Shown: positions 1,348-51,844, counted from the stretch's first letter. The stretch: 64,000 bases of DNA from Candidatus Magasanikiibacteriota bacterium (GCA_041674805.1 JBAYVA010000004.1:30069-94068), one strand, 5' to 3'. Numbers and translations: made by a program. The notes: a model not told the origin generated them from the letters alone.

Positions 1348-1478
1348 AATTTAGTTCCGACTAGTCGGGATTAAATATTTGAGTTTAGAAAAATTAGTTT
1401 ATTATTTAAAATTAAAAATTCCAAAATTTCTAAATTATCTATATTAGCTATGGTGTGGATATTCTCCAGCTTTGCTAT

Positions 1479-1507
1479 TATTCTTTATTTGCAATTTGTG
1501 TTATAAT
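1479..1507 (+). promoter_or_regulatory. candidate sigma70-like promoter with extended -10 (TGtTATAAT) for the T4SS-like operon
   Basis: TGtTATAAT at 1499-1507 with a weak -35 at 17-bp spacing; about 35 nt upstream of the 1546 start. Confidence 0.3.
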
Positions 1508-1545
1508 ATTTACAAATACATTTTTAAACGGCTAACCAAAAATAC

Positions 1546-4500
1546 ATGAGTCGTTTTGTCTTAAATCAAGTTTTGAAAATAAAAAACTTGTTGTCAAAAA
1601 TATTACCAAAAAAATTATCCAAATATCATTATTTGGCATTTTTTGTTTCTTCAATTATTTTAGTTTTTATTTTTTCTAGTCATAGTGTAATTGCTGAAGG
1701 TAGTACAGATGTTTTCGGTGGTATCGGTAATTGGGTATCTGGTGCTTTGTTGACTTTTGCTAATTTAGCTATTTTGTTGAGTATTTTCTTTTTGAAATTT
1801 TTTATTCATTTAGCTAGTTACAACAATTATATTGATGTAAATGTCGTAAAAATTGGTTGGGTGATGGTACGTGATGTAGCTAATATGTTCTTTGTGGTTG
1901 CTTTGCTTATTATTGCTTTTGCTACTATTTTAGGTATTGAAAAGTATGAATGGAAAAAAGGCCTAGTCAAGTTGATTGCTATGGCTATTTTGATAAATTT
2001 TAGTAATTTGATAGCTCAAGTTATTATTGATGTAGCTCATGTTTTTACAATTACTTTTTTGAATGCTATTTCTGCTAGTGCTGGTGGTAATTTGATCAAC
2101 ATGTTTGATTTGGCTGAAATAAATACAATGGTTCATGGTAGAGAGCTTGGTTCTGATATGCAACAAGCCAATTATGCCATATTTGGTGCTGCTGTGTTGG
2201 CTCTTATTTTTTCGGTTATTACAGCGGTAACCTTGGGAGCTTATGCTATCGTGATGGCTGCTCGTGTGGTGGTATTGTGGGCTTTGATCATTTTGTCTCC
2301 ATTGGCTTATCTTTTGTCAGCTTTGCCTGATGGTGACAAATATGCTAGTAAATGGTGGTCAGAGTTCAACAGGCATGTGATAGTCGCTCCGGTAATGGTT
2401 TTTTTCTTATGGTTGGCTTTTGCTACTTTTGGTAGCGGCAATATTATGGCTGAAATAAGTAAAAGTGCGACCGTACCTTTGGATACTGGTAGTATTCCTA
2501 CTTCTATATCTTTGTTAGAAGTTTCTACTTGGGAAAATATGGCCAGTTTTATTTTGGGTATTATATTTTTGGTGATTGGTCTAAAAATGACACAGGAAAC
2601 AGGAGCAACTGCTTCTGGTATGGTAAGTGCTGCTGTAGATTGGGGTAAGAAAGTGGCTACTATTGCTAGTGGTTATGCTCTGGGTAGATGGATGGTGGGT
2701 AAGGGCAAGGATGCTGTTATAGAAAACACACCTATTGTTGGTATGCGATCTTTAAGACGTTACGGTAAACAAATAAAAGGTGTTACTACTTATCCATTCA
2801 AAAGATTTGCTATTGCACGTGATGGGCAAGTTCAAAATTTAGAAAAAAAACGAGAGGATGCAAAAAAAGAAGGTAAAACTTTTAAAAGTTTTGCTTTGGG
2901 TGCTGCTGTACTTGGAGCTACAGCTCTTTGGAGTTCTTCAAAAAGAAAAGACACTCTGGCCGATAATTGGGAGGATATTGCTGAACATATGGATAGAGAG
3001 CATGAAGCAAAAATATCTACAAGTAGAACTCCAAGTGGTGATTTAAAACAAACTGCTCGTGTGAGAGCTGATTTTGCTGTGGAAGCTAAAGATACAAAAG
3101 GTCCTCAAAAAGGTGCTGAACGTGCTTTAAAACTTATAAAAGAAAATGATAAATCAGTAGTAGATTCTTTGAAGGCTATGTCTTCATCAAAATCAAAAGG
3201 TGAGGTTGTAACTGGTTTAGTTGATGAAGTTAAACGTGAAAAATATTTGAAAGAAAGAGATAAAGATCAAATTTTAGACAAAAAAACAGATGATGATACT
3301 TATATGAAAATTTTGGCACGAAAGAAAGTTTTTAATGAAAAATTTCAAGAAACTGTTGATACTGATAGGGATTTAATGCAAGAAGATACTAGATTACATT
3401 TACATGATACAGATGATAATTATAAAAATTTAGATAATAGATCTACAGAAGCTGGAGAAAGATTGACTCAAGCAAAAAATTTATATGCTAAACGTATGGA
3501 TGAAGGCTCTGCTGTTGAAAAAGCTAAACTTATGGAAGATGATAAATTCAAGAAGAGAGAGCAGGAGTTTGGAACTCTTGAAGCTAGAACAAAAGCTATA
3601 ACAGAAGATGTTAATTCTCAAAAAGAATTATATTTATTGAAAGCTATTAAAGAGATTTTAGGAGAAATAACATTAGATACAAAAGGTAATATGACTGGTC
3701 CAGAAGATAATGTTTATAGAAGATCTTTTGTTTCTAAAGCGGCTGTAGAGAGATTGAAAGATGGTGTGGAAAGAACACAAATTTCTTCGTTGGCTTCAGC
3801 TAGAGCAGAAGGATATGAAAAAGAATCTGATGATTTACGTGCTAATTCTGTAAGAAAAAATGCTGCAGCTGAAATACAAAAAAGAGATACTGAAATGTTT
3901 GCTAATTTGAGTTATCAAGATAGACGTTTATTAGAGCAGACATTGATTGTCAAAATTCAAGAAGCTGAGGATAAAGGAGATACAGATCTTTTGAAAAAAC
4001 TTAGAATGCAAAAAAATTCTTTGACTACTTTGAATATGTTAGATGACGCTGAAACTTCTCGTGATACTCGTATTGATGCTTTAGATAAATTGGGTATTAA
4101 CGAATTAGGAGATAAAAATCGTTTAAAAGCAGAATTGCAAAGACGTCTTGGTGTTCATACAACAAAACTTGAAGCAGTTTCTATGGATGAGGGCGAACAA
4201 ATAGCATATCTTCAAAAACTTTTTGATGATTTATATGAAGGTCAAGAAGTTCAAAAACAGATTGTTTTGGAACAAATAGAAAAAGCTATGAAATCTGTTG
4301 CTATGAAAGGTGATGAATATGGTCTTGGTCTTATCAATTCAACACCAAGTAGTGATGATATAGCTTCTGGTACAATAACAAGATCTTGGAAAAGTAAAGC
4401 CGATAATGACGAGACAGATTATTTTGCTACAAGAGCTAGAGGAGTTGATAGTATTGAAGGTTATGCTAAATTAAAGAAAATTGGTGATAAATATAAAATA

Positions 4501-4800
4501 AATGGTTTTTCTAAAAGAGGGGTAAACTCAGTTTCATTTTTTTTCAAAGGTGTTGATTCTCGTTCTATGGCAGCAGAGAGTATGAAATCTGTAAGTAGTT
4601 CTGTTAATGAAGCTTCTGTTGATTCATCAAATGTAGATGAATATTTGGATTTTTTAGAGAAAACAAAAAGTTTAATGCAAAGTAGTGGTTATGAAACAGC
4701 AAAAAAACAGTGGGAACCTTTTATTGAAAAATTGGAAGCTGAGGCAGATTTTAAACAAAAGGAAAGATTAAAAGAAATTTTAAAAAAAAAGGAAGATTAA
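1546..4800 (+). CDS. VirB6/TrbL-like polytopic membrane protein with long charged coiled-coil C-terminal extension
   Basis: First roughly 420 aa hold 7-9 predicted TM helices in a TrbL/VirB6-like arrangement. The remaining roughly 650 aa are K/E/D-rich and heptad-like. It heads an operon with PrgI-like and VirB4 genes. Confidence 0.45.
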   Translation: MSRFVLNQVLKIKNLLSKILPKKLSKYHYLAFFVSSIILVFIFSSHSVIAEGSTDVFGGIGNWVSGALLTFANLAILLSIFFLKFFIHLASYNNYIDVNVVKIGWVMVRDVANMFFVVALLIIAFATILGIEKYEWKKGLVKLIAMAILINFSNLIAQVIIDVAHVFTITFLNAISASAGGNLINMFDLAEINTMVHGRELGSDMQQANYAIFGAAVLALIFSVITAVTLGAYAIVMAARVVVLWALIILSPLAYLLSALPDGDKYASKWWSEFNRHVIVAPVMVFFLWLAFATFGSGNIMAEISKSATVPLDTGSIPTSISLLEVSTWENMASFILGIIFLVIGLKMTQETGATASGMVSAAVDWGKKVATIASGYALGRWMVGKGKDAVIENTPIVGMRSLRRYGKQIKGVTTYPFKRFAIARDGQVQNLEKKREDAKKEGKTFKSFALGAAVLGATALWSSSKRKDTLADNWEDIAEHMDREHEAKISTSRTPSGDLKQTARVRADFAVEAKDTKGPQKGAERALKLIKENDKSVVDSLKAMSSSKSKGEVVTGLVDEVKREKYLKERDKDQILDKKTDDDTYMKILARKKVFNEKFQETVDTDRDLMQEDTRLHLHDTDDNYKNLDNRSTEAGERLTQAKNLYAKRMDEGSAVEKAKLMEDDKFKKREQEFGTLEARTKAITEDVNSQKELYLLKAIKEILGEITLDTKGNMTGPEDNVYRRSFVSKAAVERLKDGVERTQISSLASARAEGYEKESDDLRANSVRKNAAAEIQKRDTEMFANLSYQDRRLLEQTLIVKIQEAEDKGDTDLLKKLRMQKNSLTTLNMLDDAETSRDTRIDALDKLGINELGDKNRLKAELQRRLGVHTTKLEAVSMDEGEQIAYLQKLFDDLYEGQEVQKQIVLEQIEKAMKSVAMKGDEYGLGLINSTPSSDDIASGTITRSWKSKADNDETDYFATRARGVDSIEGYAKLKKIGDKYKINGFSKRGVNSVSFFFKGVDSRSMAAESMKSVSSSVNEASVDSSNVDEYLDFLEKTKSLMQSSGYETAKKQWEPFIEKLEAEADFKQKERLKEILKKKED

Positions 4801-4869
4801 AAGAATAAAATAGTATAATTAATTTTCATATCATATTTCCGATATCATCGGGATTGTGGAATAGTTGAT

Positions 4870-5889
4870 TTGTTTTTTATGAATAATGATTTACAAATAA
4901 AAAAAATTATTCAAAATAATAATTTTTCTGAGGTTGAAATTAAACTTAGAAAAATTATTATTGATCCTGTTGCTAAGGATGTCTTTTGGGGTATATTGGA
5001 TGAGGATTATTCTTTTGCGGATAATAAAAAAATACAAAATGATTGGTGGAAATTATATAGAATGTATGTAGAAATTTGTTGGAAAAAAATGCCAATGTTG
5101 CATATTGAATTTGTAAATAATCATTTATTTGCAAAACAATTAGTAATTGCTAGTGTACTTAAATTTGAACCTATTGAAACTTTATTAAACTATTTGGGTT
5201 CTAGATTTCTTTTGGAAGAAGAACAAATGTCTGAATATAAAAAAATAAAAGAAAGTATTTTCAATTCTAATATTGTTTTAGGTACATATAAAGGAAAAAA
5301 TGTTATTCAAAAAGAATTAATACAAGAAATTACAGAATTAAATAGTAAAAGTAACCCTACATTGGAGTTAGCTAATTTAAAAGCAAAATTAGAAGAAATA
5401 TTTTTTTCTAATTTTCCAAATGATTTGAATTTTGATAATTTTTTTGTAAATAAAAGAGAAGTTGTTGTAACATTTTTTTCTTTTGTACATTTTTTGATAG
5501 GTGTTCAACCAAAAAGTATTTCAAGATTTATTGATTTGTATTTTAATGGTAAAGAAATACTGAATAAATCAGAATTCTCTAATATCAATAATGCTTTGGA
5601 CGAAATAGTCAATTTAGATACTGACATTGTTGAAAATATAGAAAACAATGAAGATCTTTTATCTAATAGTACAAGCAATTTAGACAATAAATATTTGCAA
5701 ATCAAATCCCAACTAGAACAACAATTTTCTTATGATGAAAATGGAGAGTTGACTCCAATAGAAGAAGTTTTGAATATTTTGTCTCAAATGGCGGAAGAAC
5801 AAGGTGATGTAAATATTGAAGAGTTGTATATGTTTGATGAAAATGCTGGTAAGTTTGTCTGGAACGAAGAATTAACTAATGCTAAATAA
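4870..5889 (+). CDS. hypothetical protein (T4SS-cluster associated)
   Basis: Long ORF co-directional within the T4SS-like operon; no recognisable motifs. Confidence 0.5.
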   Translation: MFFMNNDLQIKKIIQNNNFSEVEIKLRKIIIDPVAKDVFWGILDEDYSFADNKKIQNDWWKLYRMYVEICWKKMPMLHIEFVNNHLFAKQLVIASVLKFEPIETLLNYLGSRFLLEEEQMSEYKKIKESIFNSNIVLGTYKGKNVIQKELIQEITELNSKSNPTLELANLKAKLEEIFFSNFPNDLNFDNFFVNKREVVVTFFSFVHFLIGVQPKSISRFIDLYFNGKEILNKSEFSNINNALDEIVNLDTDIVENIENNEDLLSNSTSNLDNKYLQIKSQLEQQFSYDENGELTPIEEVLNILSQMAEEQGDVNIEELYMFDENAGKFVWNEELTNAK

Positions 5890-5891
5890 GT

Positions 5892-7148
5892 ATGGCCGAT
5901 AATAAACAAGCCACAATTTTGGTAAAAAAAGCTGACGGTACAAAAGTACGCGTTACTCTTGAGGAATTCAAAAAAATGCGTGAAGGAGAAAAGGGGAATG
6001 GAGAAACATCCCAAACGTCTGGCAAGAGCGGAATGAGTGACAATGAACAGAATGTGATGAACAATGAGCTAATAACCCCGCTAGAAAATAATATTCAAGA
6101 AGAAAAAATGTTTGTCACTTCAGCTTCTGTACCTCTATCACCAGCTGTTACATTGTTAGAAAATGAACAAGTTTTAGCAAAAGAACAAAATGATGTACCT
6201 GTAGCAGAAGAAAATGAATTGGCAACAACTACACCAGTGACAGATATTTTTGTCAATGAAGCTGCTGCAAATTTTGAATGGGGTCAAAAAGACAATGAAT
6301 CACTTTTAGAAGAAGACAACAAAGAAGTAGTGGCTTTGCAAAACAAAGGTAAAGTGCATGTGGCTATGCATGATTTGAATGAACATATCAAAATGCCTAG
6401 TATGGGAATAGATGATGATATGAAAAATCGTGCTAAATCTTTGCTTATTTCTTGGCAAAAAGGTATTAGAAATGATTATCAGATTTTGGATTATGCTAAA
6501 CGAGATATCAATCACGGTGGTCTTGGTTTGGATGATGATCAAGCCAATAGATTTTTGAATCAAATAAAAAATTACAAAAATAATTTAGACAATTTGTTTG
6601 AAATAGTTTTTGAAAAAAAGAAACAACAAGTTATCTTGAATACTAATACAAAAAATGTTGTTGATGCTACATCAAAAAATGAAGTCCTAAACATAAATCC
6701 AGAAAATTTTAGAAAAGAAATTGCCAAAAATACTATTACAGATGATAATTTTTTTAGTGCTCCTTTTTCTCATACGCCACCAAAATCTGTTGTTTATGAT
6801 GTGGCTTCACCACAATCATTGAAACAAAAAACAACTGGACCAAAACAAGAAATATCCGAATTTTCATTAGTAGAATTTCGTCGTTTTGCCAAAGATCCTT
6901 ACAAATGTGCGGATATGTTATTTTCAAAATTTCAATCTTGGAAACAAGAATCTTATTTGTTGTTTTTAGATACTATGGAAGGTTGGCACTTGAGTCCTTT
7001 GTACAATATGTATGTCAGAGCAACCTTGGAAGCTTTCAACAAACATATTACTTTACAACAATTTTTTCAGACAAAAAATCCTAATGATTTTATTACTTTT
7101 GAAGAATACAAAAGTTTGATAGAGTTAAACGACAAGTTAAGTAAGTAG
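5892..7148 (+). CDS. hypothetical acidic protein (T4SS-cluster associated)
   Basis: Start sits 3 nt after the upstream stop; D/E-rich; no recognised domain. Confidence 0.5.
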   Translation: MADNKQATILVKKADGTKVRVTLEEFKKMREGEKGNGETSQTSGKSGMSDNEQNVMNNELITPLENNIQEEKMFVTSASVPLSPAVTLLENEQVLAKEQNDVPVAEENELATTTPVTDIFVNEAAANFEWGQKDNESLLEEDNKEVVALQNKGKVHVAMHDLNEHIKMPSMGIDDDMKNRAKSLLISWQKGIRNDYQILDYAKRDINHGGLGLDDDQANRFLNQIKNYKNNLDNLFEIVFEKKKQQVILNTNTKNVVDATSKNEVLNINPENFRKEIAKNTITDDNFFSAPFSHTPPKSVVYDVASPQSLKQKTTGPKQEISEFSLVEFRRFAKDPYKCADMLFSKFQSWKQESYLLFLDTMEGWHLSPLYNMYVRATLEAFNKHITLQQFFQTKNPNDFITFEEYKSLIELNDKLSK

Positions 7149-7153
7149 TTTTT

Positions 7154-7591
7154 ATGCAACAGTTTGTAGTACCACAATTTATTGAAGTAGAAGACAAAAT
7201 TTTTGGTCCAATTACAGTGAGACAGTTTCTTATATTATTAGTCACTGGTACTATTATCTTTTTTTCTTTTCGTTATGGAGATTTTTATTTGTTTCTTTTG
7301 TGCTTAGTTTTTTTTGGAGGTTTGGGTCTTATTTTCTCTTTTGTAAAAATAAATGGACAAAATTTTCATTATTTCATATTGAATGTTATACAAAGTTTAA
7401 AAAAACCAGATTTGCGTGTTTGGCACAAACATTATGACAAAGTTGAATTAAATTATTTACGTAAACGTGTTTTTGTTGTAGAGAGTGTTGACAAAAAACA
7501 AAAAAAAGTTCAAAAAAAACATATTAGAGATTTGGCTTTACTGGTGAATACTGGAGGATTTTATAAACCAGATGATGATTTTTCTTTTTAG
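7154..7591 (+). CDS. PrgI/VirB3-like small membrane protein
   Basis: N-terminus VPQFIEVEDKIFGPITVRQFLILL matches the PrgI-family pattern (P..L..V.TK..F.LT.RQ) followed by two TM helices; lies immediately upstream of VirB4. Confidence 0.5.
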   Translation: MQQFVVPQFIEVEDKIFGPITVRQFLILLVTGTIIFFSFRYGDFYLFLLCLVFFGGLGLIFSFVKINGQNFHYFILNVIQSLKKPDLRVWHKHYDKVELNYLRKRVFVVESVDKKQKKVQKKHIRDLALLVNTGGFYKPDDDFSF

Positions 7592-7652
7592 TTTATTCTT
7601 TATCAAAAAGTAATTTGATTAGAAGTAGTAGATTTGTTAAATTTTTTATATT

Positions 7653-8339
7653 ATGCAAAATAAAAAAGCTTTAAAAAAAATAAACAAAAAACCAAATACG
7701 CAGACATATTTGCCTATTGCTGAAATTAGAGATGATGTTGTGGTTTTGAAAGATGGCACTTTGCGAGCAGTACTTATTACTTCTAGTATCAATTTTTCTT
7801 TGAAATCAGAAGACGAACAAAATGCTACAATTTCTTCTTATGTAGGATTTTTGAATTCTTTGGATTTTCCTATTCAAATTAGTGTGCAATCTAGACGTTT
7901 GCAAGTCAAACCTTACTTAGAGAAATTGATGGACCAAGAAAAAAAACAAACAAACGAATTATTGCGCATCCAAACAGCTGATTATCGTTCTTTTATTGAA
8001 GAGTTAGTAGATATTGGCAAAATAATGACCAAAAAATATTATGTGATAGTTCCTTATGATCCTTTGTCTAATAATAAAAAAAGTTTTTGGTCAAGGTTCA
8101 AGGAAGTTGTCAAACCAGCAATTTCTTTACGTCTAAAAGACGAAAGATTCAAACAAAGAAAAGATGGTTTGGAAATGCGTGTTAGACAAGTATCTAGTGG
8201 TTTGGAAAATATGGGTTTATCTGTAGCGCAGTTAGATACACAATCATTGATAGAATTATATTATAATACTTACAATCCAGATATTGCTTTTGCAGAACAA
8301 TTGGGTGATATCGAAAAACAGCAAATAGAGGAGTTGTAA
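7653..8339 (+). CDS. VirB4/TrbE-like ATPase, N-terminal domain fragment (split gene)
   Basis: YLPIAEIRDDVVVLKDGTLRAVLITSSINFSLKSEDEQ...FPIQISVQSRRL resembles the VirB4 N-terminal (CagE/TrbE/VirB) domain. It stops 38 nt before the ATPase ORF. Confidence 0.5.
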   Translation: MQNKKALKKINKKPNTQTYLPIAEIRDDVVVLKDGTLRAVLITSSINFSLKSEDEQNATISSYVGFLNSLDFPIQISVQSRRLQVKPYLEKLMDQEKKQTNELLRIQTADYRSFIEELVDIGKIMTKKYYVIVPYDPLSNNKKSFWSRFKEVVKPAISLRLKDERFKQRKDGLEMRVRQVSSGLENMGLSVAQLDTQSLIELYYNTYNPDIAFAEQLGDIEKQQIEEL

Positions 8340-8377
8340 GTGTTTAGTTATTAAAAAAATAGTATATAATCATAAAT

Positions 8378-10255
8378 ATGCCTTTTAGACCTATTTCAAG
8401 CAGTAATATAAAAAACTTCAAAGATTACGAGCTTGAAGATAAAGAAAAAATAAAAATTAAAGAAGATTTAATATCTCTTGAAGAAGAGCGTGTTTATCGT
8501 GAAGGTACGGTGGCAATACGTGATCTTATTGCGCCCTCAGCTTTCAAAGTAGAACCAAATTTTTTACAATTGGGTGATACTTTTTTGCGTACTATTTTTG
8601 TAACTAGTTATCCTCGTTATATTGGAGTTGGTTGGAATGCTTCTATCCTCAATTTGAATTTGAGTATGGATGTTAGTATGTTTTTTTATCCTGTTAACTC
8701 TGCGGTAATTTTGAAACAATTAAAAAATAAAGTAGGTGCTTTGCAAGCACAATTGTCTTCAGACGCTGAAAAAGGCGCTGCCCGTGATCCTTTGAGAGAG
8801 ACAGCTTTACGTGATATAGAATCTTTGCGAGATGATTTGACTCAGGGTACTGAACATTTTTTTCAATTTGCTTTTTATATTACACTGTACTCAACAAGTA
8901 AAGAAGAATTGGACAAACAAACTGATGATTTGCACAATATTTTTGGTTCAAAATTGATTCATAGTAAACATGTTTTGTATCAATCTGAACAAGGCTTCAA
9001 TTCTACAATACCATTGGGAGTAGATGAATTAGTTATTTCTTTTAACATGAATTCATCTCCGATTGCAGCTTCATTTCCTTTTATATCCTCAGAGCTTACT
9101 AGTGATGATGGTATTTTGTATGGTATCAACAGACATAATAATAGTTTGATTTTGTTTGATAGATTTTCTTTGCAAAATGCCAATATGGTAGTATTTGCTA
9201 CTTCTGGTGCTGGTAAATCTTATGCTGTAAAATTGGAAATTTTGCGTAGTTTGATGATGGGTATTGATGTAATTGTAATTGATCCTGAAATGGAGTATGT
9301 TCATTTGTCTGAAGCTGTAAATGGTACTTATGTAAATATTTCTTTGGCTTCTGATAGTAAAGTAAATCCTTTTGATTTGCCAAGACCTGTTGGTCAACAA
9401 GTTTCAACTGAAGATGTGATTAGAAGTGCTGTCATTACTTTGAAAGGTTTGTTGCGTATTATGTTAGGTACTATAAATTCTACAGAAGATTCTATTTTGG
9501 ATAGAGCTTTGCTTGAGACTTATGCCAAAAAAGATATTACTATAAATAGTGATTTGTCTACTGTTGAAGCGCCTGTGATGCAAGATTTGCTGGATGTTTT
9601 GTCTGGTATGGATGGAGCTGAAAATTTAGTAATTAGATTAAAAAAATATACAGATGGTACTTTTGCTGGCTTATTCAATTCTCCAACCAATGTAAATACA
9701 AGTAATCAACTTGTGATATTTAGTGTGCGTGATTTGGAAGATGAATTGCGTCCAATGGCTATTTATACTTTGGTCAATTATATTTGGAATATTGTGCGTT
9801 CTGAAAAAAAGAAAAGATTACTTATGATAGATGAAGCTTGGTGGCTTATGATGCACGAAGATAGTGCCAAATTTATGTATGCTTTGGTCAAGCGTTGTCG
9901 TAAATATTTCTTGGGAGTAACAACTATCACTCAAGACGTCAATGATTTTTTGCGTTCTCCTTATGGACAAGCTATTGTGAACAACTCATCTATGCAATTG
10001 CTTTTAAAACAATCTCCTTCAGCAATTGATACTATTCAAAAGACTTTTATGTTGACAGAAGGTGAAAAATATTTGCTTTTGGATAGTCCGGTAGGACAAG
10101 GTATTTTCTTTGCTGGCAACAAACATGTGGCTATTCAAGTAGTTGCTTCTTATACTGAAGATCAATTGGTCACTACCAATCCTCAACAGCTTTTGGAAAT
10201 AGAAAGAGCCAAAAAAGATTTTCAAGATAAAATGAATAATGAGTATTTATCATAA
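8378..10255 (+). CDS. VirB4/TrbE-like conjugal-transfer ATPase, ATPase domain
   Basis: Walker A VVFATSGAGKSYAV, Walker B/DEAW motif LLMIDEAWWLM, and ITQ motif in GVTTITQD, all typical of VirB4/TraC. Confidence 0.65.
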   Translation: MPFRPISSSNIKNFKDYELEDKEKIKIKEDLISLEEERVYREGTVAIRDLIAPSAFKVEPNFLQLGDTFLRTIFVTSYPRYIGVGWNASILNLNLSMDVSMFFYPVNSAVILKQLKNKVGALQAQLSSDAEKGAARDPLRETALRDIESLRDDLTQGTEHFFQFAFYITLYSTSKEELDKQTDDLHNIFGSKLIHSKHVLYQSEQGFNSTIPLGVDELVISFNMNSSPIAASFPFISSELTSDDGILYGINRHNNSLILFDRFSLQNANMVVFATSGAGKSYAVKLEILRSLMMGIDVIVIDPEMEYVHLSEAVNGTYVNISLASDSKVNPFDLPRPVGQQVSTEDVIRSAVITLKGLLRIMLGTINSTEDSILDRALLETYAKKDITINSDLSTVEAPVMQDLLDVLSGMDGAENLVIRLKKYTDGTFAGLFNSPTNVNTSNQLVIFSVRDLEDELRPMAIYTLVNYIWNIVRSEKKKRLLMIDEAWWLMMHEDSAKFMYALVKRCRKYFLGVTTITQDVNDFLRSPYGQAIVNNSSMQLLLKQSPSAIDTIQKTFMLTEGEKYLLLDSPVGQGIFFAGNKHVAIQVVASYTEDQLVTTNPQQLLEIERAKKDFQDKMNNEYLS

Positions 10256-10877
10256 ACTAATTGCTATTTTTATGTTTACATTTAGACAAAGAATTTTTAT
10301 TTTTTCTGGTATTTTTGTGGGATTGGTTTTGGTTATTTTATTATATTTTTTTTATATAAAACCAAAAAACAATAAGCAAGAGAACACACCAGAAGTTGTG
10401 GTCAATGAAAATATTGTAGACAGCAATAATCCTAATTTAATTTTTGATAATTTAGCAAATAATAATCAAGTTATAAGTAAACCAGACGGAACACCAGAAG
10501 AACAATTTTTGAAACAGATGTCTAGATTTTTTGTAGAAAGATTTTTTACTTATTCTAATCAAAATAACAATGTTCATATTGTAGAATTACAAAGTTTGGC
10601 AACACCAAGTATGAATACTTGGATGAATACACAAATGAGAAAAAAAGAGCAAGACTATAGTGGTGTTACTACTAGAGTTTTTAGTATGTCTCTTATTAAT
10701 TTTGACAAAAATTTAGCAAAAGCTTCTGCCATGGTAGATGCTGAACATGTTATTTCTATTGAAAAAGATAATCAAGTAGAACAAAGTAAAACACAAAAAA
10801 AATACCAAGTAGATTTTGAATACGTTGATAATACTTGGAAAGTCTCAGCTGTTTGGGACAAAACTTTAAGCAATTAA
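10239..10877 (+). CDS. single-pass membrane protein, possible VirB8/PrgL-like
   Basis: N-terminal TM helix plus a roughly 160-aa extracytoplasmic domain. Its position after VirB4 mirrors Gram-positive T4SS order. No motif-level proof. Confidence 0.3.
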   Translation: MSIYHKLIAIFMFTFRQRIFIFSGIFVGLVLVILLYFFYIKPKNNKQENTPEVVVNENIVDSNNPNLIFDNLANNNQVISKPDGTPEEQFLKQMSRFFVERFFTYSNQNNNVHIVELQSLATPSMNTWMNTQMRKKEQDYSGVTTRVFSMSLINFDKNLAKASAMVDAEHVISIEKDNQVEQSKTQKKYQVDFEYVDNTWKVSAVWDKTLSN

Positions 10878-10885
10878 TTTTTTAT

Positions 10886-11578
10886 ATGATTTTGGGAGGA
10901 ATTGTCAATTCTTTAAAAGATATTTTTTTTCCAGTAAATTGTTTAAACTGTGCCAAAGAAGGTGCTTTTGTTTGTAATGAATGTTTTGAAACACTAGATT
11001 TGTCTGGTGTTTTTTGTTGTCCTATTTGTCACAAAGAAACTATTGATGGAAATTATTGTGATAATTGCCAACCTTTGTTTATAGACAAACATGTCGCTGC
11101 TATCAAATATTTAGAAACAGATTTGATAGGGGAGATAATCCATAATTTCAAATATCAGTATGTAGAAGATTTGGATAAAATAATTGAAAAAATGTTGATA
11201 AATTTTTTTGCAAACAAAAAAATAAGTGATATAGATTTAATAACTTTTGTGCCTTTGCATAGTCGTAGATATGTAGAAAGAGGATTCAATCAAGCTGAAA
11301 AAATAGCAATACTTTGTGGTAAAATTTTACATAAGCCGGTTACTAATTTACTCAAGAGAACTCGATATACACATCCACAAGCTCAGTTCAAAAGACAAGA
11401 AAGATTAGTGAATTTGCAAAATGCTTTTTCTTTAGAGAATAAAAAAGATGTGTTTGCCAAAAATATTTTGGTAGTTGACGATGTATTTACTACAGGTTCT
11501 ACTATTCAGGAGTGTGCTAAGGTCTTAAAATTGCATAAAGCTGCTAATGTATATGGTTTTAGTTTAGCTAGAGGTTGA
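10886..11578 (+). CDS. comFC: ComF family protein (ComFC-like, zinc-ribbon + phosphoribosyltransferase domain)
   Basis: CLNCAKEGAFVCNECF...CCPICHKETIDGNYCDNCQ double zinc ribbon and C-terminal PRTase motif ILVVDDVFTTGSTI. The start is set at the MILGG Met rather than the overlapping upstream TTG. Confidence 0.7.
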   Translation: MILGGIVNSLKDIFFPVNCLNCAKEGAFVCNECFETLDLSGVFCCPICHKETIDGNYCDNCQPLFIDKHVAAIKYLETDLIGEIIHNFKYQYVEDLDKIIEKMLINFFANKKISDIDLITFVPLHSRRYVERGFNQAEKIAILCGKILHKPVTNLLKRTRYTHPQAQFKRQERLVNLQNAFSLENKKDVFAKNILVVDDVFTTGSTIQECAKVLKLHKAANVYGFSLARG

Positions 11579-11599
11579 TTAATTATAAAATTAGACAAA

Positions 11600-11631
11600 A
11601 AAATATCGCTTTTTATTGCGATATTTTTTTA
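11600..11631. terminator. bidirectional rho-independent terminator (comFC / dsbB convergent)
   Basis: Hairpin aatatcgc-ttttatt-gcgatatt flanked by A-run and T-run. Confidence 0.6.
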
Positions 11632-11642
11632 TGTTTACAAAG

Positions 11643-12158
11643 TTATTTTTTTTGCATTTTTAAAAAGAAAATCATTAGTATAAAAGCAGTAAGTGACATC
11701 ATAGGTATTGTAACATAGCCAAACTCCAAAATATATAATTTGGTACAAGAGACAGCAGTATCACAAGCAATACTATTTTCAGTACCTAGGTAATAAAGTA
11801 AATTTTGATAGACACCAATGATAGCTCCTAATATTGTCAATGTTAAAGCGTATAAGTAAGAATGTTTAAATTCTTTTTTGAAGTAAGCAATACCCAAAAA
11901 TATTGCTTGAGGATAAATAAAGACTCTTTGCCACCAACATAAAGAACATGGTAAATAGCCAACTATTTCAGAATAATACAAACTAAGTAAAGCAGAAAAA
12001 AGAGCCATTAGCCAAGCTAATAGTAGACCATATTGTCCAAAAAATTTCTTGGCCAAGTTGTTTTCTTTTTTCCAAAAAATATAAATCAAAACTACAATTA
12101 AAAAAATGTGTGATAAAAGTGTGCCTGTAGCTAAAAGTTTGTTTACTATTTCGATCAT
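11643..12158 (-). CDS. disulfide bond formation protein B (DsbB/BdbC family)
   Basis: Four TM helices, with the CSLCWWQR motif and second Cys pair (CDTAVSC) characteristic of DsbB/BdbC. Confidence 0.65.
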   Translation of the reverse strand: MIEIVNKLLATGTLLSHIFLIVVLIYIFWKKENNLAKKFFGQYGLLLAWLMALFSALLSLYYSEIVGYLPCSLCWWQRVFIYPQAIFLGIAYFKKEFKHSYLYALTLTILGAIIGVYQNLLYYLGTENSIACDTAVSCTKLYILEFGYVTIPMMSLTAFILMIFFLKMQKK

Positions 12159-12168
12159 ATTTTTTATA

Positions 12169-12549
12169 TTAAGGTAATTGACAACTTGTTTTTTCTGCTA
12201 ATTCTTGCAAAGATAATTCACCAGATTGTCTACTACCATCGGCAAATATCCAAGTAGGATAGCCTTCTATTTTTTGATTAGTACAGACAGGTAATTGTCC
12301 ATTGCTATCTACAGTAGAACATTCTACATATGGTAAGTATTTGGCAGATTTTCCAAAAGTTTCTTTTTGGGCATTACAATGTGAACACCAAAAAGCGCCA
12401 TAAAAAACAGCCCCTTTGTCTTGTAAACATTTGGCAAATTCATCTAGTTTGCCAGGTTTTTGGTTGTAAGAGACTAAACTATAAATAGCAATACTTAAGA
12501 TAATAATTATGATTGAAATTATAGTAATATTTTTTGTTTTTTTATTCAT
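12169..12549 (-). CDS. membrane-anchored thioredoxin-fold thiol-disulfide oxidoreductase
   Basis: N-terminal TM helix and WCSHC active-site motif; co-transcribed with DsbB. Confidence 0.6.
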   Translation of the reverse strand: MNKKTKNITIISIIIIILSIAIYSLVSYNQKPGKLDEFAKCLQDKGAVFYGAFWCSHCNAQKETFGKSAKYLPYVECSTVDSNGQLPVCTNQKIEGYPTWIFADGSRQSGELSLQELAEKTSCQLP

Positions 12550-12650: not shown

Positions 12651-12651
12651 G

Positions 12652-12738
12652 CGGAGAGATAGGGATTCGAACCCTAGGAAGGTTTGACCCTTCAACGGTT
12701 TTCAAGACCGCCGCCATAGACCGCTCAGCCATCTCTCC
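12652..12738 (-). tRNA. tRNA-Ser (anticodon UGA)
   Basis: Acceptor GGAGAGA/TCTCTCC, G73, long variable arm, anticodon loop CUUGAAA, T-loop GTTCGAATC; no encoded CCA. Confidence 0.85.
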
Positions 12739-12740
12739 AG

Positions 12741-12774
12741 TTTAACTTTTGACAGTTAACATTTGACAATTAAC
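12741..12774. repeat. direct repeats TTGACA(G/A)TTAAC between tRNA genes
   Basis: tttgacagttaacatttgacaattaac; related copies at 12944-12978 and 12988-13023. Confidence 0.5.
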
Positions 12775-12852
12775 TTATTAAAATAAGGTTAATTTTTAAT
12801 AGTCAAATGTAAATTGTCAAGATTGGTGTATTGTTACTATGATGATCAAAAG

Positions 12853-12941
12853 CGGAGAAGGCGGGATTCGAACCCGCGGTCCGGTTTTACCCAGACAACA
12901 CATTAGCAGTGTGCCCCTTTCGGCCTCTCAGGCACCTCTCC
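12853..12941 (-). tRNA. tRNA-Ser (anticodon GCU)
   Basis: Acceptor GGAGAGG, long variable arm, anticodon loop CUGCUAA, GTTCGAATC T-loop; no encoded CCA. Confidence 0.85.
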
Positions 12942-13026
12942 TATGACAACTTTTAACAGTTGGCAATTGACTATTAACTTTTTTTAAGATGTCAACTGTC
13001 ATTTGTTAAGTGTCAAAAGTTGGTCC

Positions 13027-13116
13027 TGGCGGAGAGACAGGGATTCGAACCCTGGGTCCCCTTGCGGAGACTGCAGTTTAGTAAACTGCTGCTATCGGCC
13101 ACTCAGCCATCTCTCC
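13027..13116 (-). tRNA. Ser-type (class II) tRNA with atypical anticodon loop UUACUAA (anticodon ACU), CCA encoded
   Basis: Acceptor and D arm are identical to tRNA-Ser(UGA). Anticodon stem GCAGU/ACUGC with loop TTACTAA, long variable arm, G73 and a genomically encoded CCA. Confidence 0.6.
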
Positions 13117-13245: not shown

Positions 13246-13707
13246 ATGAAAAACAAAATGAACAATCATGGATTTTCTATGATTTTAGAAAATTTACAAG
13301 ATGTTTCTTCACAAGAAGCTTATGGAAAAGAAGCCTCAAAAGAATTCAAAGATTGGATAGAAGAGGGAAGTAGTGAAGGTAAATTATCTATAGATGTGGC
13401 TCAAAATGATTCACATATTTTTGTAGTATCTACTATGGCTGGTGCTAAACCAGATAAAATAGAAGTTTTTGTTCACAATGATGTTTTGACTATTAGAGGT
13501 ACAAGATATTCTCCTTTAGATATAGAAAAAAACATTGAATATTATTACAAAGAATGTTTTTGGGGAGTATTTTCTCGTACGGTTGTTTTGCCTGTTGAAG
13601 TAAAAAGTGATTTATCTTATGCCAAATTTCAAAATGGTGTTTTGTTTTTAAGTATCCCAAAAAAGAAACATGAAACCAAAATCTCGATTGAGATAGTAGA
13701 AGACTAA
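13246..13707 (+). CDS. Hsp20/alpha-crystallin family small heat shock protein
   Basis: Alpha-crystallin domain pattern with the conserved G-x-L-x-I-x-x-P-K motif (GVLFLSIPKK). Confidence 0.7.
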   Translation: MKNKMNNHGFSMILENLQDVSSQEAYGKEASKEFKDWIEEGSSEGKLSIDVAQNDSHIFVVSTMAGAKPDKIEVFVHNDVLTIRGTRYSPLDIEKNIEYYYKECFWGVFSRTVVLPVEVKSDLSYAKFQNGVLFLSIPKKKHETKISIEIVED

Positions 13708-22171: not shown

Positions 22172-24481
22172 ATGAGTATACACGATGCAATTAAAGAAGG
22201 TGAACATACACAGGAGTTTCAGCCTAGTGTTGCTGAAGCGAAGAATGAAACTCATCAAAAAATAATAGAACTTTTGGAAAATGTACCTGCTGTCCTTAAT
22301 AGTGAAGTGGCTACTACTAAACAGCTAGTTTTTGAGATGATAGAAAGAGCAAAATCTGTTGATCTTGATGCTGAGGATATCTCCGCATTTGAGGATGCTA
22401 TGAAAAATATTGTGAAAGAACTGGAAGTGCTTGCGCAGAAAGTACAGATACAATTGAATGCTATTCAAGCTACTAATGAATTAGTTGCTAGTGGTATTCT
22501 TTCTGTAGAAGATGTACCTGAAGCAGATCCTATAAATTTGGGTGTTTTTCAACAAAGTGTTAGATCAGTGATGTCTCAGGTCAGTGGTGAATTGTCAGCT
22601 ATTGTTAATAAAAATGTACAAGAAAGGTATCGTAGAAGAGCTAGAATTAATTTTGCTGACACATTAAACAGATCTGGATTGAAAAGTTCTCATATAGAAT
22701 TATTTACCATTCCTCCACTTGAACCTTCAGATGTCTTGCAAAAACAAAGGGTAGCTTTTGAGAATGCAAAAAATTCGGCTTCTTTGTCTCAAGATGTGTT
22801 AACAAGAGCAGAAAATAATTTAAGAGCATTAGAACAAAAAGAACAAATTGCCTGGGATGCTTCACACGCTGGCAATTCTGAAGAGATTGCACTTTTGGAT
22901 AGTATTCGTACTGCTTTGGATACGGGAACCTTGGATAAATTATTTGCTAAAAAAGGATTTGATACTGAAAAAGCTGTTAAATTGATTGCTACTCAAATTC
23001 GTGAGAAAGCATTTTCTCTTGATGGTATAGGTAATGATATATTAAAAGAACTTCCAGAAGAAGTTATAAAGGCTATTGTGCAAGATATGTCTGATGAGGA
23101 AATGTGGAAGACTATTAGAGAAATGTCTATGATTGTTGCTGGGAAAAAAACAATTTCATACATATACATAAGCAAACCATACCAGGAAAGATCAAAAAAA
23201 TTAATAAGAACACAGGCAGATGCAATAAAAGTTTTTGATGATTTTTCTATTTATAATAATACATTGGGAAGATTGGTTGATGCTTTGAAAGAAAAATCGG
23301 TAGATAAAAATAATATTCGTGATAAGGCGGTAATGGAATTAAAGGATGTGGCTATAGCTATAAAGGTAATGAAAGATAGTAATGATCCTAATTTGACGTA
23401 TGTTAATTTATTTCCAGATGTACAAGATGATTTTGATAAGTTTATAGAACAAATTGAAACATCTCCAAATTTACAACCTTCTGATATCTTCCAATTTGTT
23501 ACAAAAATTAAGGAGACTTTGTTTCATCCAATAAATAGAATCAAAGAAACTTCATACATTAGTTCTTCTGCTGTAGATGGGGCCACTAGTCTGTATCAAG
23601 ACCAATTGAGGCAATCAGAAGCAAAAAACAGTAGGGAAAGAGAAATTAAGGGAGTAATTAGTGGTGTTTTGAGTGAGTTGTTATCATATAAAGTAGATGA
23701 TTATATAAGAGAAAAATTTGACCTTAATAAGTTAGAAGGTCATTTAAGTTCTATTTCTGCATCTGTTCACGATTATATTTGTGCTGTAAAACTTTGTGAA
23801 TTGCAAGAGCAAGCATATAGAGAATTTAGGAGCAAACCTTTTTTGGGTCAAAATAGAAAAATAGAATTGACTGATGCTCAAAAAGATGCTATTACAGCTA
23901 TTGCACAACTAGAAGGTCAAGAAGATCCTGGTGTTGGGGGAATTAAATTTGTTGATTATAATAAAGAAAGGAATAAAATGTCAGTAAAAAGAGGTATTAT
24001 GGAAGAAAAGAGGATGATTGTTATAAATCAAGTATCTAGATTTAGTACGCCAAATCTAGCTGTGATCAGTAACCTCATGCCCACAAGAGAACAAGTGGTA
24101 TCTTCTGTTTTAGAAAAATTAAAAAGAATTGAAGAAAAAAAATTGGGTGGAAGCTTTTATGTTGATGAATCATTGTTGAAAATAGAAGCCGAAACGTTTG
24201 TTCCTGATATAAAAGAATTACAAAGATCAATAGCAAAAAAAATACTTGCAACAGCAAAAAAATATATGGATTTGCTAGATAAAGCAATAGTATCTTATGA
24301 TACTAAAAATATAGAGGGAATGCAGATAGAATTATCTAATATGGAGACTGTTAATGAAAAAGTAGATTCTTCTTATAAAGAAGTAGTTACTTCTGGAGGA
24401 GGGGGACGTGTGTTGGGAGTATTACAATCTGTTAAGAAGGATCTTCAAGAAATGTTAGATGGTTTTTCAAAATATGAATAA
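22172..24481 (+). CDS. large hypothetical protein (769 aa, predicted all-alpha/coiled-coil, no TM)
   Basis: Long uninterrupted ORF; no recognisable catalytic motifs. Confidence 0.55.
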   Translation: MSIHDAIKEGEHTQEFQPSVAEAKNETHQKIIELLENVPAVLNSEVATTKQLVFEMIERAKSVDLDAEDISAFEDAMKNIVKELEVLAQKVQIQLNAIQATNELVASGILSVEDVPEADPINLGVFQQSVRSVMSQVSGELSAIVNKNVQERYRRRARINFADTLNRSGLKSSHIELFTIPPLEPSDVLQKQRVAFENAKNSASLSQDVLTRAENNLRALEQKEQIAWDASHAGNSEEIALLDSIRTALDTGTLDKLFAKKGFDTEKAVKLIATQIREKAFSLDGIGNDILKELPEEVIKAIVQDMSDEEMWKTIREMSMIVAGKKTISYIYISKPYQERSKKLIRTQADAIKVFDDFSIYNNTLGRLVDALKEKSVDKNNIRDKAVMELKDVAIAIKVMKDSNDPNLTYVNLFPDVQDDFDKFIEQIETSPNLQPSDIFQFVTKIKETLFHPINRIKETSYISSSAVDGATSLYQDQLRQSEAKNSREREIKGVISGVLSELLSYKVDDYIREKFDLNKLEGHLSSISASVHDYICAVKLCELQEQAYREFRSKPFLGQNRKIELTDAQKDAITAIAQLEGQEDPGVGGIKFVDYNKERNKMSVKRGIMEEKRMIVINQVSRFSTPNLAVISNLMPTREQVVSSVLEKLKRIEEKKLGGSFYVDESLLKIEAETFVPDIKELQRSIAKKILATAKKYMDLLDKAIVSYDTKNIEGMQIELSNMETVNEKVDSSYKEVVTSGGGGRVLGVLQSVKKDLQEMLDGFSKYE

Positions 24482-24510: not shown

Positions 24511-25083
24511 ATGAGAGATAAACCATTTGATTTTAGTATACGTAGTGAAAGTGAAGGTATTATTGGTTTGAGTGATAGTATTGAAGATGTTAATAGTCAT
24601 AGTGAAAAAGAATCTTCACCTGATTTGGAAAAATGCCAAAGAATAATTTGGAAAAAAATTTTAGAAGATAAAGATTTCTTTAAAGGTTTATCTAAATTTT
24701 CTATATCTGCTAAGACAATTGCTAAAATGAATGGATTAAGATTACCTTATCAAGCTACTCGGGAGGATATTCAAAAATGTAGTTCTAAAAAAGAAATTAG
24801 AGATATTAAAAAATTGTTGTTTGATAAAATTATTGATCAGATAAATGTATATAATTTAGAAAATGGTTATTTTCCTTTCCCTACTGTTTTACCTGATATA
24901 AATTTTGAAGAATCAGAAAAATTTCAGTTTGATGTCTTTGTAAATAACGGTTTACAAAAAGTTACTTTTTTGTGTACTTTGTCTTATGAATGTGTTTATG
25001 GTTATGATTGTCCTATTTTGGAAGTTATAGATATTGTTCAATATAGTCAGTCGGTTTATGATTTTAATACTTTGAATACTTGA
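24511..25083 (+). CDS. hypothetical protein (190 aa)
   Basis: ORF 30 nt downstream of the 769-aa gene; no motifs. Confidence 0.5.
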   Translation: MRDKPFDFSIRSESEGIIGLSDSIEDVNSHSEKESSPDLEKCQRIIWKKILEDKDFFKGLSKFSISAKTIAKMNGLRLPYQATREDIQKCSSKKEIRDIKKLLFDKIIDQINVYNLENGYFPFPTVLPDINFEESEKFQFDVFVNNGLQKVTFLCTLSYECVYGYDCPILEVIDIVQYSQSVYDFNTLNT

Positions 25084-51226: not shown

Positions 51227-51844
51227 ATGGAGGAAAACAAAAAAAGATTTTTTAAATTAGACATATTTTTTTGGTTATTTTTGCTAGCTGTGGCTGGTTA
51301 TTTTTTTTTGAAGAGTGCACCGCAGGCGACAGCACCAGATGATGAAAGTATGGTGACAAGTACTAGTGAGGTGAGTGCTGATTTACCAGAGGGTGTGACA
51401 GTGGAAAATTTGGGAGATGGTAATAAGTTGGTTAAGAATGAAAAGAATGATTATACTTTAAAAGTTAATGATGATATTTATTTGTATAAAGATTTTGAAG
51501 GAGATTTGAGAGTGCAAAATTATGAACAACCAAAAGAAGCTTATGGTGGTTCCCCTGGTTGTAGTGTTTCTATAACTCTTTTTCCTATAAAAACACAAGA
51601 AGAACTTAGAATTGAAGAAGAAAATAATTGTAAAAATATAATAGGTTTTGATTGTAAATCAGTACATGTAGAACAATTAAAATATAATAATATTGATTGG
51701 ATTAAAATTTATTCCCATGGTACTTATGTAGGTACAGATAATCCTTTAATTGTTACTAATAGAGAAGATAGTATGATAGGTCTATATTTTTCTTGTTCTA
51801 ATAAAAATTTTGTAGATAATATATTAAATAATTTTTCATTTTAA
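51227..51844 (+). CDS. hypothetical secreted/membrane-anchored protein
   Basis: N-terminal hydrophobic segment FFWLFLLAVAGYFFL; no known domain. Confidence 0.5.
   Translation: MEENKKRFFKLDIFFWLFLLAVAGYFFLKSAPQATAPDDESMVTSTSEVSADLPEGVTVENLGDGNKLVKNEKNDYTLKVNDDIYLYKDFEGDLRVQNYEQPKEAYGGSPGCSVSITLFPIKTQEELRIEEENNCKNIIGFDCKSVHVEQLKYNNIDWIKIYSHGTYVGTDNPLIVTNREDSMIGLYFSCSNKNFVDNILNNFSF

Follow-up and report, generated by a model that had tools for sequence, protein, structure and literature searches.

What kind of machine is encoded by a block of type IV secretion system (T4SS) genes that ends in the competence gene comFC, and what might it carry? The block lies in a stretch of 64,000 nucleotides (nt) from a Candidatus Magasanikiibacteriota bacterium (GCA_041674805.1, JBAYVA010000004.1:30069-94068), referred to here as the window; the organism belongs to the candidate phyla radiation (CPR, or Patescibacteria), and the Magasanikbacteria are members of GTDB class ABY1. 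The eight plus-strand open reading frames (ORFs) of the block are predicted to encode a VirB6/TrbL-like membrane protein, two orphan soluble proteins (U339 and U418), a PrgI/VirB3-like protein, a TrsD-like protein, a VirB4-family ATPase, a VirB8-like protein, and ComFC. We regard the locus, with a probability of roughly 0.8, as an instance of the Patescibacteria-clade T4SS derived from the FATA class of mating pair formation systems (MPF-FATA), a minimal cytoplasmic-membrane translocon. This supports the original prediction, made from the sequence, of a chromosomal, non-conjugative, Gram-positive-type (MPF-FATA) T4SS module in a CPR bacterium. The system itself is already known: it was described in 2025, and interpreting it as a DNA importer repeats a published hypothesis.

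Eight genes form one operon and one conserved unit

Upstream of the eight ORFs stands an Asn/Asp-tRNA synthetase gene (56-1288), and downstream a dsbB gene in convergent orientation. Because the gaps within the block range from -17 to 69 nt, all on the same strand, and terminator-like hairpins stand at both ends, we conclude that the block is one tightly packed operon that includes comFC (Table 1). The original prediction gave the sizes, order, and plus strand of its ORFs correctly but overlooked the 228-residue ORF between the genes for PrgI and VirB4. The first in-frame start codon of the block is at 1546, which puts the originally stated start, position 1479, 67 nt too far upstream. The motifs that it quoted are present: FGPITVRQ at residue 17 of PrgI and, in the ATPase, a Walker A motif (GAGKS) at residue 277 and a Walker B motif (DEAW) at residue 485.

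Table 1. Features of the T4SS operon and its immediate borders, in window coordinates (TM, transmembrane)
Feature	Position	Strand	Basis and remarks
Two terminator-like hairpins	1318-1347 and 1349-1376	+	Consensus matches; upstream operon boundary, after the Asn/Asp-tRNA synthetase gene
Weak promoter-like site	1384-1412		Consensus match
VirB6/TrbL-like polytopic membrane protein (putative), 1084 residues	1546-4800	+	Pfam matches of orthologues, TM segments, position
Orphan U339, soluble, acidic, 339 residues	4870-5889	+	No family
Orphan U418, soluble, acidic, 418 residues	5892-7148	+	No family; N-terminal beta-hairpin motif
PrgI/VirB3-like protein, 145 residues, two TM helices	7154-7591	+	PF12666
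TrsD-like protein (putative), 228 residues, soluble, basic	7653-8339	+	Sub-cutoff NCBIfam matches
VirB4-family ATPase, 625 residues	8378-10255	+	Pfam, NCBIfam, and PDB matches
VirB8-like bitopic protein (from model), 212 residues	10239-10877	+	AlphaFold2 model and Foldseek
comFC, 230 residues	10886-11578	+	TIGR00201, DZR_2, Pribosyltran, motifs
Bidirectional terminator-like hairpin	11595-11632	Both	Consensus match; 15-pair stem with T-runs on either side; downstream operon boundary
DsbB	11643-12158	-	PF02600; convergent to comFC
CxxC thioredoxin	12169-12549	-	Convergent to comFC

Conservation was assessed in 80 species-level relatives (loci L001 to L080) whose VirB4 is 70-90% identical to that of the window; the ORFs of all 80 loci were clustered, and the spread of each gene family was counted per locus. 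The eight operon genes turned out to be the eight most widespread families, each found in 50 to 80 loci and in the same order, with the next family present in 19. The T4SS block was found in all 80 relatives, and its flanks differ widely among the loci. A comparison of synteny across related genomes, which the original prediction had proposed, thus singles out the eight-gene block as the only conserved one. Median identity to the window proteins is highest for VirB4 (75%), followed by the TrsD-like protein (64%), PrgI (55%), the VirB6-like protein (40%), ComFC (36%), the VirB8-like protein (30%), and U418 and U339 (both ~25%). Among the best 120 of 8000 VirB4 matches, those with a named source all come from Magasanikbacteria/Patescibacteria (77-91% identity), and the best characterized relatives are MPF-FATA proteins. 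The block tracks the species tree.

The motor appears to be a VirB4 split into two genes

The 625-residue protein matches the Pfam family P-loop_TraG (PF19044, 1.6e-29) and the NCBIfam VirB4-like CD1110 family, for which it scores 354 bits against a cutoff of 325 over model positions 175-734 of 752; its identity to relatives is 70-91%. Comparison with the PDB gave Thermoanaerobacter VirB4 (4ag5) at 4.6e-45 and the MPF-T VirB4 TrwK at 3.6e-3. A grouping with FtsK/HerA instead of VirB4, which the original prediction had named as the outcome to look out for, did not emerge, the HerA/DUF87 scores being much weaker (8e-9). These matches identify the protein as a VirB4-family ATPase, one lacking the N-terminal ~170 positions of the full-length models.

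The TrsD-like protein encoded immediately upstream has a precomputed match to PF26593 (TraC-like) on record, together with several NCBIfam matches that all lie below the curated cutoffs: VirB4_plasma over positions 90-284 (1.5e-9), TrsD/TraD NF041427 (3e-6), CD1110 VirB4 over positions 5-118, and VirB4 PRK13853 over positions 11-120. On the CD1110 model, its coverage (5-118) and that of the 625-residue protein (175-734) are complementary. The possibility that the two are paralogues was ruled out by this complementarity and by an hhalign probability of 0.2%. Because coverage is complementary and the proteins are not paralogues, we interpret the TrsD-like protein as the counterpart of a detached VirB4 N-terminal domain, with VirB4 split into two genes as in the TrsD-TrsE pair of pGO1/pIP501. 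The TrsD-like protein has its own ORF in every one of the ~75 related loci in which the pair was seen, separate from the ~625-residue ORF and 1-287 nt ahead of virB4; the split therefore does not stem from a frameshift.

Membrane components

The product of the first gene has about 7-9 hydrophobic segments within residues 24-344, followed by a charged, hydrophilic tail of ~740 residues; Lys, Arg, Asp, and Glu make up 38% of residues 421-1084. Its relation to VirB6 is suggested by its orthologues, 13 of 45 of which matched PF04610 (TrbL/VirB6) with their N-terminal regions (best E value, 6e-6). The N-terminal region was also compared with the PDB in a profile search, which gave no match. Genes for VirB6-like proteins occupy the same position in 64 of the 80 related loci, and the total length of the product ranges from 487 to 1832 residues. 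The C-terminal tail, in the window as in the orthologues from L001-L080, is hypervariable in length and highly charged.

PrgI was assigned by PF12666 (E value 3.6e-7), its 31.1 bits exceeding the gathering score of 27. It has two TM segments and a basic C-terminal tail, and is found in 74 of the 80 loci.

The seventh gene encodes 212 residues from its first ATG; the NCBI annotation has 201 residues, from position 10272. By sequence the protein gave a weak match to TraE (PF05309, 1.3e-3), below the gathering threshold. In the AlphaFold2 model, an N-terminal TM helix is joined through a disordered linker to an NTF2-like domain (predicted local distance difference test score of 80-95 in the domain), and the original prediction had suggested looking for just such a VirB8 fold. 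The top PDB matches from Foldseek were OrfG (8s7l, 2e-5), TcpC (3ub1), PrgL (7aed), and CagV (6iqt), with E values between 2e-5 and 1e-4. The modeled fold thus identifies the protein as VirB8-like.

Two orphan families are integral to the operon

U339 is translated from a TTG, with an ATG three codons later; it is without a TM segment and has a pI of 4.6. Neither U339 nor U418 matches a Pfam or NCBIfam family, and a sub-threshold match of U339 to SseB was judged meaningless. The U339 slot is occupied in 50 of the 56 loci with enough upstream sequence. In other genomes it has an alternative occupant, cluster c10, with which U339 shares homology (hhalign probability 96.5%, E value 7.6e-10).

U418 begins with a near-invariant beta-hairpin, TILVKKxDGT, which leads into a long disordered linker and two helical domains. 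The structural comparison proposed for this protein resolved these parts of the fold and found no structural neighbor. Its family comprises 2,486 clusters at 50% identity with an E value of ≤1e-3, and 1,257 at ≤1e-30; it has no Pfam model, is unnamed among the members checked, and the cluster names gave no information on its taxonomic breadth. U339 and U418 are probably lineage-specific cytoplasmic factors, with an accessory or substrate-recruiting role.

comFC closes the operon

The ComFC sequence matches TIGR00201 (comF) at 9e-32, with 110 bits against an equivalog-style cutoff of 233, as well as DZR_2 and Pribosyltran. The mechanically called ORF begins at a TTG, position 10835; an ATG at 10886 gives the 230-residue protein. 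Numbered from the TTG, the double zinc ribbon (CLNC, CNEC, CPIC, and CDNC) spans residues 36-78, and the phosphoribosyl pyrophosphate loop of the phosphoribosyltransferase domain, VVDDVFTTGST, is at residue 213.

Only 8 nt separate the stop codon of the VirB8-like gene from comFC. Sixty-seven related loci extend far enough to hold comFC; in 61 of them it starts 400-1300 nt past the virB4 stop codon on the same strand, so that the membership of comFC in the T4SS operon is well founded. Apparent fusions of the VirB8-like protein with ComFC in L010, L017, and L028 were artefacts of ORF extension across stop codons, and none of the relatives showed ComFC fused to a T4SS component.

The operon is not a conjugative element

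The window is an exact piece of a chromosome-scale metagenome contig of 743,922 nt (ENA ERZ27247358 k141_1563332), and it encodes proteins identical to those deposited at NCBI for a metagenome-assembled genome of Candidatus Magasanikbacteria (locus tags WC070_04825 and WC070_04845). Pfam scans covered every window ORF of ≥190 residues and most shorter ORFs of ≥90 residues. VirD4, relaxase, VirB11, integrase, and pilin genes were found neither in the 64-kb window nor in the 8.5 kb upstream of it on the source contig (~72 kb in all), which extends the earlier statement that VirD4, relaxase, VirB11, and pilin are absent within 10 kb; the scans of the window also found no comEC and no pilin-like small ORF. 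The label "coupling-protein-less" in the original prediction thus applies to these ~72 kb.

A remnant of an integrated conjugative element would be in keeping with the descent of T4SS genes from conjugation machinery and with the three tRNA-Ser genes that lie 1 kb downstream of the block (12651-13116, minus strand), the genes for DsbB and thioredoxin standing between them and comFC. Such a cluster is found near the block, just downstream and on either strand, in 28 of 36 related loci. The features expected of an integrated element are nevertheless missing. No integrase, relaxase, or type IV coupling protein (T4CP) gene occurs within the ~72 kb, and the far side of the block is without a direct repeat derived from a tRNA. 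The only flanking repeat, a 19-nt direct one (220-238 and 13649-13667), was judged to be due to chance, being an A-rich near-match inside two conserved coding genes. The GC content of the block is that of its surroundings (~30% across the window, with a steady positive GC skew). Presence in all 80 species-level relatives, with VirB4 at 70-90% identity, also speaks against such a remnant, as does the VirB4 homologue reported in ~80% of 3,035 CPR genomes (PMC12102498). Integration at tRNA-Ser is effectively refuted. With no relaxase, coupling protein, integrase, or pilin gene in the ~72 kb, and with a distribution that follows the species tree, the block is, we conclude, not a conjugative element.

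One member of the tRNA cluster is unusual in itself. The tRNA-Ser at 13027-13116 (minus strand) has the anticodon ACU (A34; loop UUACUAA) and is clustered with tRNA-Ser(UGA) and tRNA-Ser(GCU); it is kept in at least seven related genomes (L003, L004, L005, L006, L021, L032, and L056). In bacteria, A34 tRNAs other than tRNA-Arg(ACG) are rare.

The neighboring Dsb pair is unrelated to the secretion system

The convergent pair beyond comFC is present as the original prediction described it. DsbB (BdbC-like PRK03113, 1e-30, in addition to PF02600) carries a CSLC motif, and the thioredoxin is membrane anchored, with a CSHC motif and six cysteines. That the pair might mature the extracytoplasmic parts of the T4SS, as had been suggested, or competence proteins linked to ComFC, is an idea that draws on its position next to the block here and in the closest relative (L001), and on the BdbC-like character of DsbB; BdbCD is needed for competence proteins in B. 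subtilis. Yet the pair adjoins the block in just 1 of the 80 related loci, and it is transcribed convergently and set off by the terminator-like hairpin. The VirB6-like, VirB8-like, and TrsD-like proteins have no cysteine, and PrgI has a single one, within a predicted TM segment; orthologues of the VirB8-like protein have a median of 0 cysteines, and those of the VirB6-like protein 1.5. The cysteines of ComFC are ligands of a cytoplasmic zinc ribbon. The maturation link, which would need a disulfide-bonded extracytoplasmic T4SS component, is thus contradicted by the sequence at this locus. Because adjacency is rare, transcription is convergent behind a hairpin, and the extracytoplasmic parts are without cysteines, we reject the link, to which we would allow hardly any likelihood; the DsbB/thioredoxin pair is an insertion unrelated to the T4SS. 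Likely substrates of the pair lie elsewhere and include cysteine-containing proteins with hydrophobic N termini, such as those encoded at 51227-51844 and 51855-55694.

Relation to described systems

Quinonero-Coronel et al. (2025) surveyed 3,035 Patescibacteria genomes and reported 2,474 VirB4 homologues in 2,417 of them, 2,425 of these homologues forming one clade nested in MPF-FATA (PMC12102498). TrsD, PrgI/VirB3, and VirB6 adjoin virB4 in these systems, VirB2-like pilins accompany most of them, VirB8 homologues are almost confined to class ABY1, and relaxases are nearly absent; VirD4-like (T4CP) genes occur in 2,918 of the 3,035 genomes, mostly far from virB4 (PMC12102498). In ABY1, comF, recG, and radA are commonly co-localized with the T4SS, for which the authors propose the import of DNA or other macromolecules (PMC12102498).

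The window locus resembles this description closely. It is chromosomal and relaxase-less, has no T4CP gene beside virB4, combines VirB4 with TrsD, PrgI/VirB3, and a VirB6-like protein and, as in the ABY1 form, holds a VirB8 homologue and comF; the Patescibacteria system, moreover, occurs almost throughout the phylum and is inherited within classes. Unlike that system, the locus is not beside dnaA/dnaN, and it has neither recG nor radA as a neighbor. The consulted sections of the survey (PMC12102498) describe neither the pair of conserved, soluble orphans found at this locus nor the long tail, of hypervariable length, of its VirB6-like protein. The locus also differs from the Southlakia epibionticum genes SEML1_0006-0019 (PMC10633639) in having neither a VirB2-like pilin array nor a VirB1-like hydrolase in cis.

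Among MPF-FATA T4SSs in general, the likeness extends to the top VirB4 families, the PDB match to 4ag5, the PrgI member, the two-gene layout of TrsD and VirB4, a VirB8-like NTF2 protein closest to OrfG, TcpC, and PrgL, and the lack of an outer-membrane core complex. Unlike those systems, the locus has no relaxase, T4CP, VirB1-type hydrolase, or adhesin gene nearby. The operon was found to hold no VirB1/CwlT/TcpG-type hydrolase (no lytic transglycosylase, NlpC/P60-CHAP, or M23 domain); the nearest wall-related gene, for a VanW/PG_binding_4 protein, lies 2 kb downstream and is not kept as a neighbor in relatives. In contrast to MPF-FATA plasmids and integrated elements, moreover, this is a core chromosomal operon with comFC inside it.

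Several points weigh against the assignment to the Patescibacteria-clade T4SS. Placement in the published VirB4 clade is by best matches. The 1084-residue VirB6-like protein has no Pfam match of its own, and the NTF2 fold behind the VirB8 assignment is also used by other families, such as ARC6 and the CaMKII hub (Foldseek).

Two further groups of machines offer functional parallels. Like this T4SS within the ~72 kb covered, the H. pylori ComB system is without VirD4, VirB11, and relaxase and has VirB4 as its sole ATPase (PMC12857230), and in H. pylori cells the entry and handling of DNA also depend on ComFC (PMC9005727). The archaeal Ced and Ted systems are likewise reduced, VirB4-family-driven machines, and they import DNA with neither relaxase nor T4CP (PMC12102498). 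The resemblance to Ced has limits, since the CedB match (1.2e-12) reaches 47 bits against a cutoff of 700, the CedA channel is unrelated, and Ced is without ComFC. ComB, for its part, differs in being a diderm, MPF-T-type system with VirB2, VirB7, VirB9, and VirB10, and it delivers double-stranded DNA to the periplasm only, ComEC making the membrane step. In H. pylori, comFC is not known to lie in the comB operon.

A tentative mechanism and the question of cargo

Homologous T4SS structures (R388 and Gram-positive systems) furnish the outline of a mechanism. The VirB6-like polytopic protein would form the conduit, and PrgI/VirB3 and the bitopic VirB8-like NTF2 protein would serve as the membrane scaffold. 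The motor would be the split VirB4, with its TrsD-like N-terminal piece and 625-residue ATPase piece; the TrsD-like piece and PrgI would tether the VirB4 hexamer to the membrane. U339 and U418 may act as cytoplasmic accessory or substrate-recruiting factors, and ComFC, a single-stranded DNA-binding competence protein, would be made from the last gene of the same operon. What the genes encode, how the operon is built, how widely it is conserved, and that conjugation genes are lacking nearby is shown above; what the machine carries, and in which direction, is inferred.

Of the cargo models, we rate uptake of nucleic acid that is handed to ComFC highest for this lineage, though at less than even odds. 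It has to contend with genetic data from Southlakia, the only CPR bacterium tested in this way: transposon sequencing showed the T4SS to be essential for epibiotic growth, and comEC, comF, and dprA to be dispensable (Wang et al. 2023, PMC10633639), the essentiality being restated in a 2025 review (PMC12857230). It has also to contend with the experimentally supported partner of ComFC, which is ComEC, bound strongly in Firmicutes (PMC12663950), and with 6 of the 67 loci in which the T4SS is kept but comFC is not beside it.

Ranking just behind uptake is export of protein, or of other macromolecules, or a role in host contact, with comFC merely co-transcribed and sharing regulation but not machinery; we hold this for a serious contender, again short of even odds. 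Wang et al. suggested protein export or an alternative role, the coupling protein and relaxase being absent (PMC10633639). The hypervariable, charged tail of the VirB6-like protein, 150-1500 residues long, fits a fast-evolving interaction surface, and the VirB2-like pilins of most CPR T4SSs elsewhere (PMC12102498) are a further point in favor of such a role. Set against this, the conserved block contains no pilin, adhesin, VirB1-like hydrolase, or candidate effector; its sole non-structural conserved gene is the DNA-handling comFC, and the ancestral MPF-FATA machines move DNA.

A stronger form of the uptake model, to which both the original prediction and the published speculation lead when taken at full strength, makes the T4SS itself a ComEC-independent, Ced-like channel that brings DNA from the host or the environment across the membrane; ComFC would dock to it and take single-stranded DNA for recombination or nucleotide salvage. 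The terminal position of comFC in the operon, seen in 61 of 67 loci, the common association of ABY1 T4SS loci with comF, recG, and radA (PMC12102498), and the weak CedB match noted above, far under its cutoff, are consistent with it, and VirD4-less T4SSs for DNA uptake do exist, in H. pylori ComB (PMC12857230) and in Ced. We consider it unlikely. In Southlakia, deletion of comEC abolishes transformation (PMC10633639), and the dispensable com genes and the ComFC-ComEC binding cited above also tell against this form. Neither recG nor radA adjoins the block in the window or in the Magasanikbacteria loci examined. The RuvX and RecO genes directly upstream of the tRNA synthetase gene and operon (L081, on the source contig upstream of the window, 7269-8382) are shared by 1 of the 80 loci (L017), so that a conserved linkage to recombination genes was rejected, and, as noted, ComFC was not seen fused with a T4SS part. 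Doubtful, too, is the specific version for Magasanikbacteria/ABY1, in which the split VirB4 would pull host DNA through the VirB6-like channel and ComFC, co-translated from one mRNA with it, would dock at the cytoplasmic face, perhaps via U339/U418 or the TrsD-like protein, and capture single-stranded DNA there.

Surroundings of the operon and other features of the window

The chromosomal context is one of housekeeping genes. Genes for SecY, Adk, Map, RuvX, and RecO are encoded in the 8.5 kb upstream of the window, ahead of the Asn/Asp-tRNA synthetase gene, and ClpP, SMC, and ribosomal protein genes follow downstream. The scans of the window yielded housekeeping genes (among them ClpP, SMC, S16, L20, pyruvate kinase, and PPDK), a ~23-kb rhamnose/glycosyltransferase cluster, and a few ORFs without a family. 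In 16 related loci (L016, L022, L023, L036, L038, L041-L043, L045, L048, L050, L053, L054, L056, L066, and L078), a cysteine-rich protein family of ~560 residues, c11, is encoded just upstream of the VirB6-like gene; it is absent from the window.

Two consecutive plus-strand ORFs after SMC, 22172-24481 (769 residues) and 24511-25083 (190 residues), have no Pfam family and look soluble. The co-oriented cluster at 27820-51140 (plus strand) is devoted to GDP/dTDP-sugar modification, with a rhamnose pathway, C- and O-methyltransferases, an aminotransferase, about eight glycosyltransferases, and an ABC exporter; a Wzy_C/TPR protein is encoded just upstream (25655-27661). This surface-glycan cluster is a big investment for a small genome. 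Beyond it, the ORF at 51855-55694 (plus strand) encodes 1279 residues with an N-terminal hydrophobic segment and Peptidase_C39-like and lamin-tail domains, and may be a large surface or secreted protease.

Significance

The Patescibacteria T4SS is near-universal in its phylum, and the one species tested depends on it for epibiotic growth; yet the parts that define conjugation are missing from it. The locus described here represents no new kind of system; it is a clean, well-bounded example of the ABY1 form. It shows that the conserved unit comprises exactly eight genes, comFC among them, and indicates that VirB4 is consistently split and that a VirB8 fold, as modeled, is present. Two large unannotated soluble families are integral to the operon, one of them with ~2,500 sequence clusters. 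The hypothesis that ComFC is coupled to the T4SS, and the roles of the two orphans, are now directly testable. If it proved true, the ABY1 importer would be a bacterial counterpart of archaeal Ced and would give ComFC a new partner.

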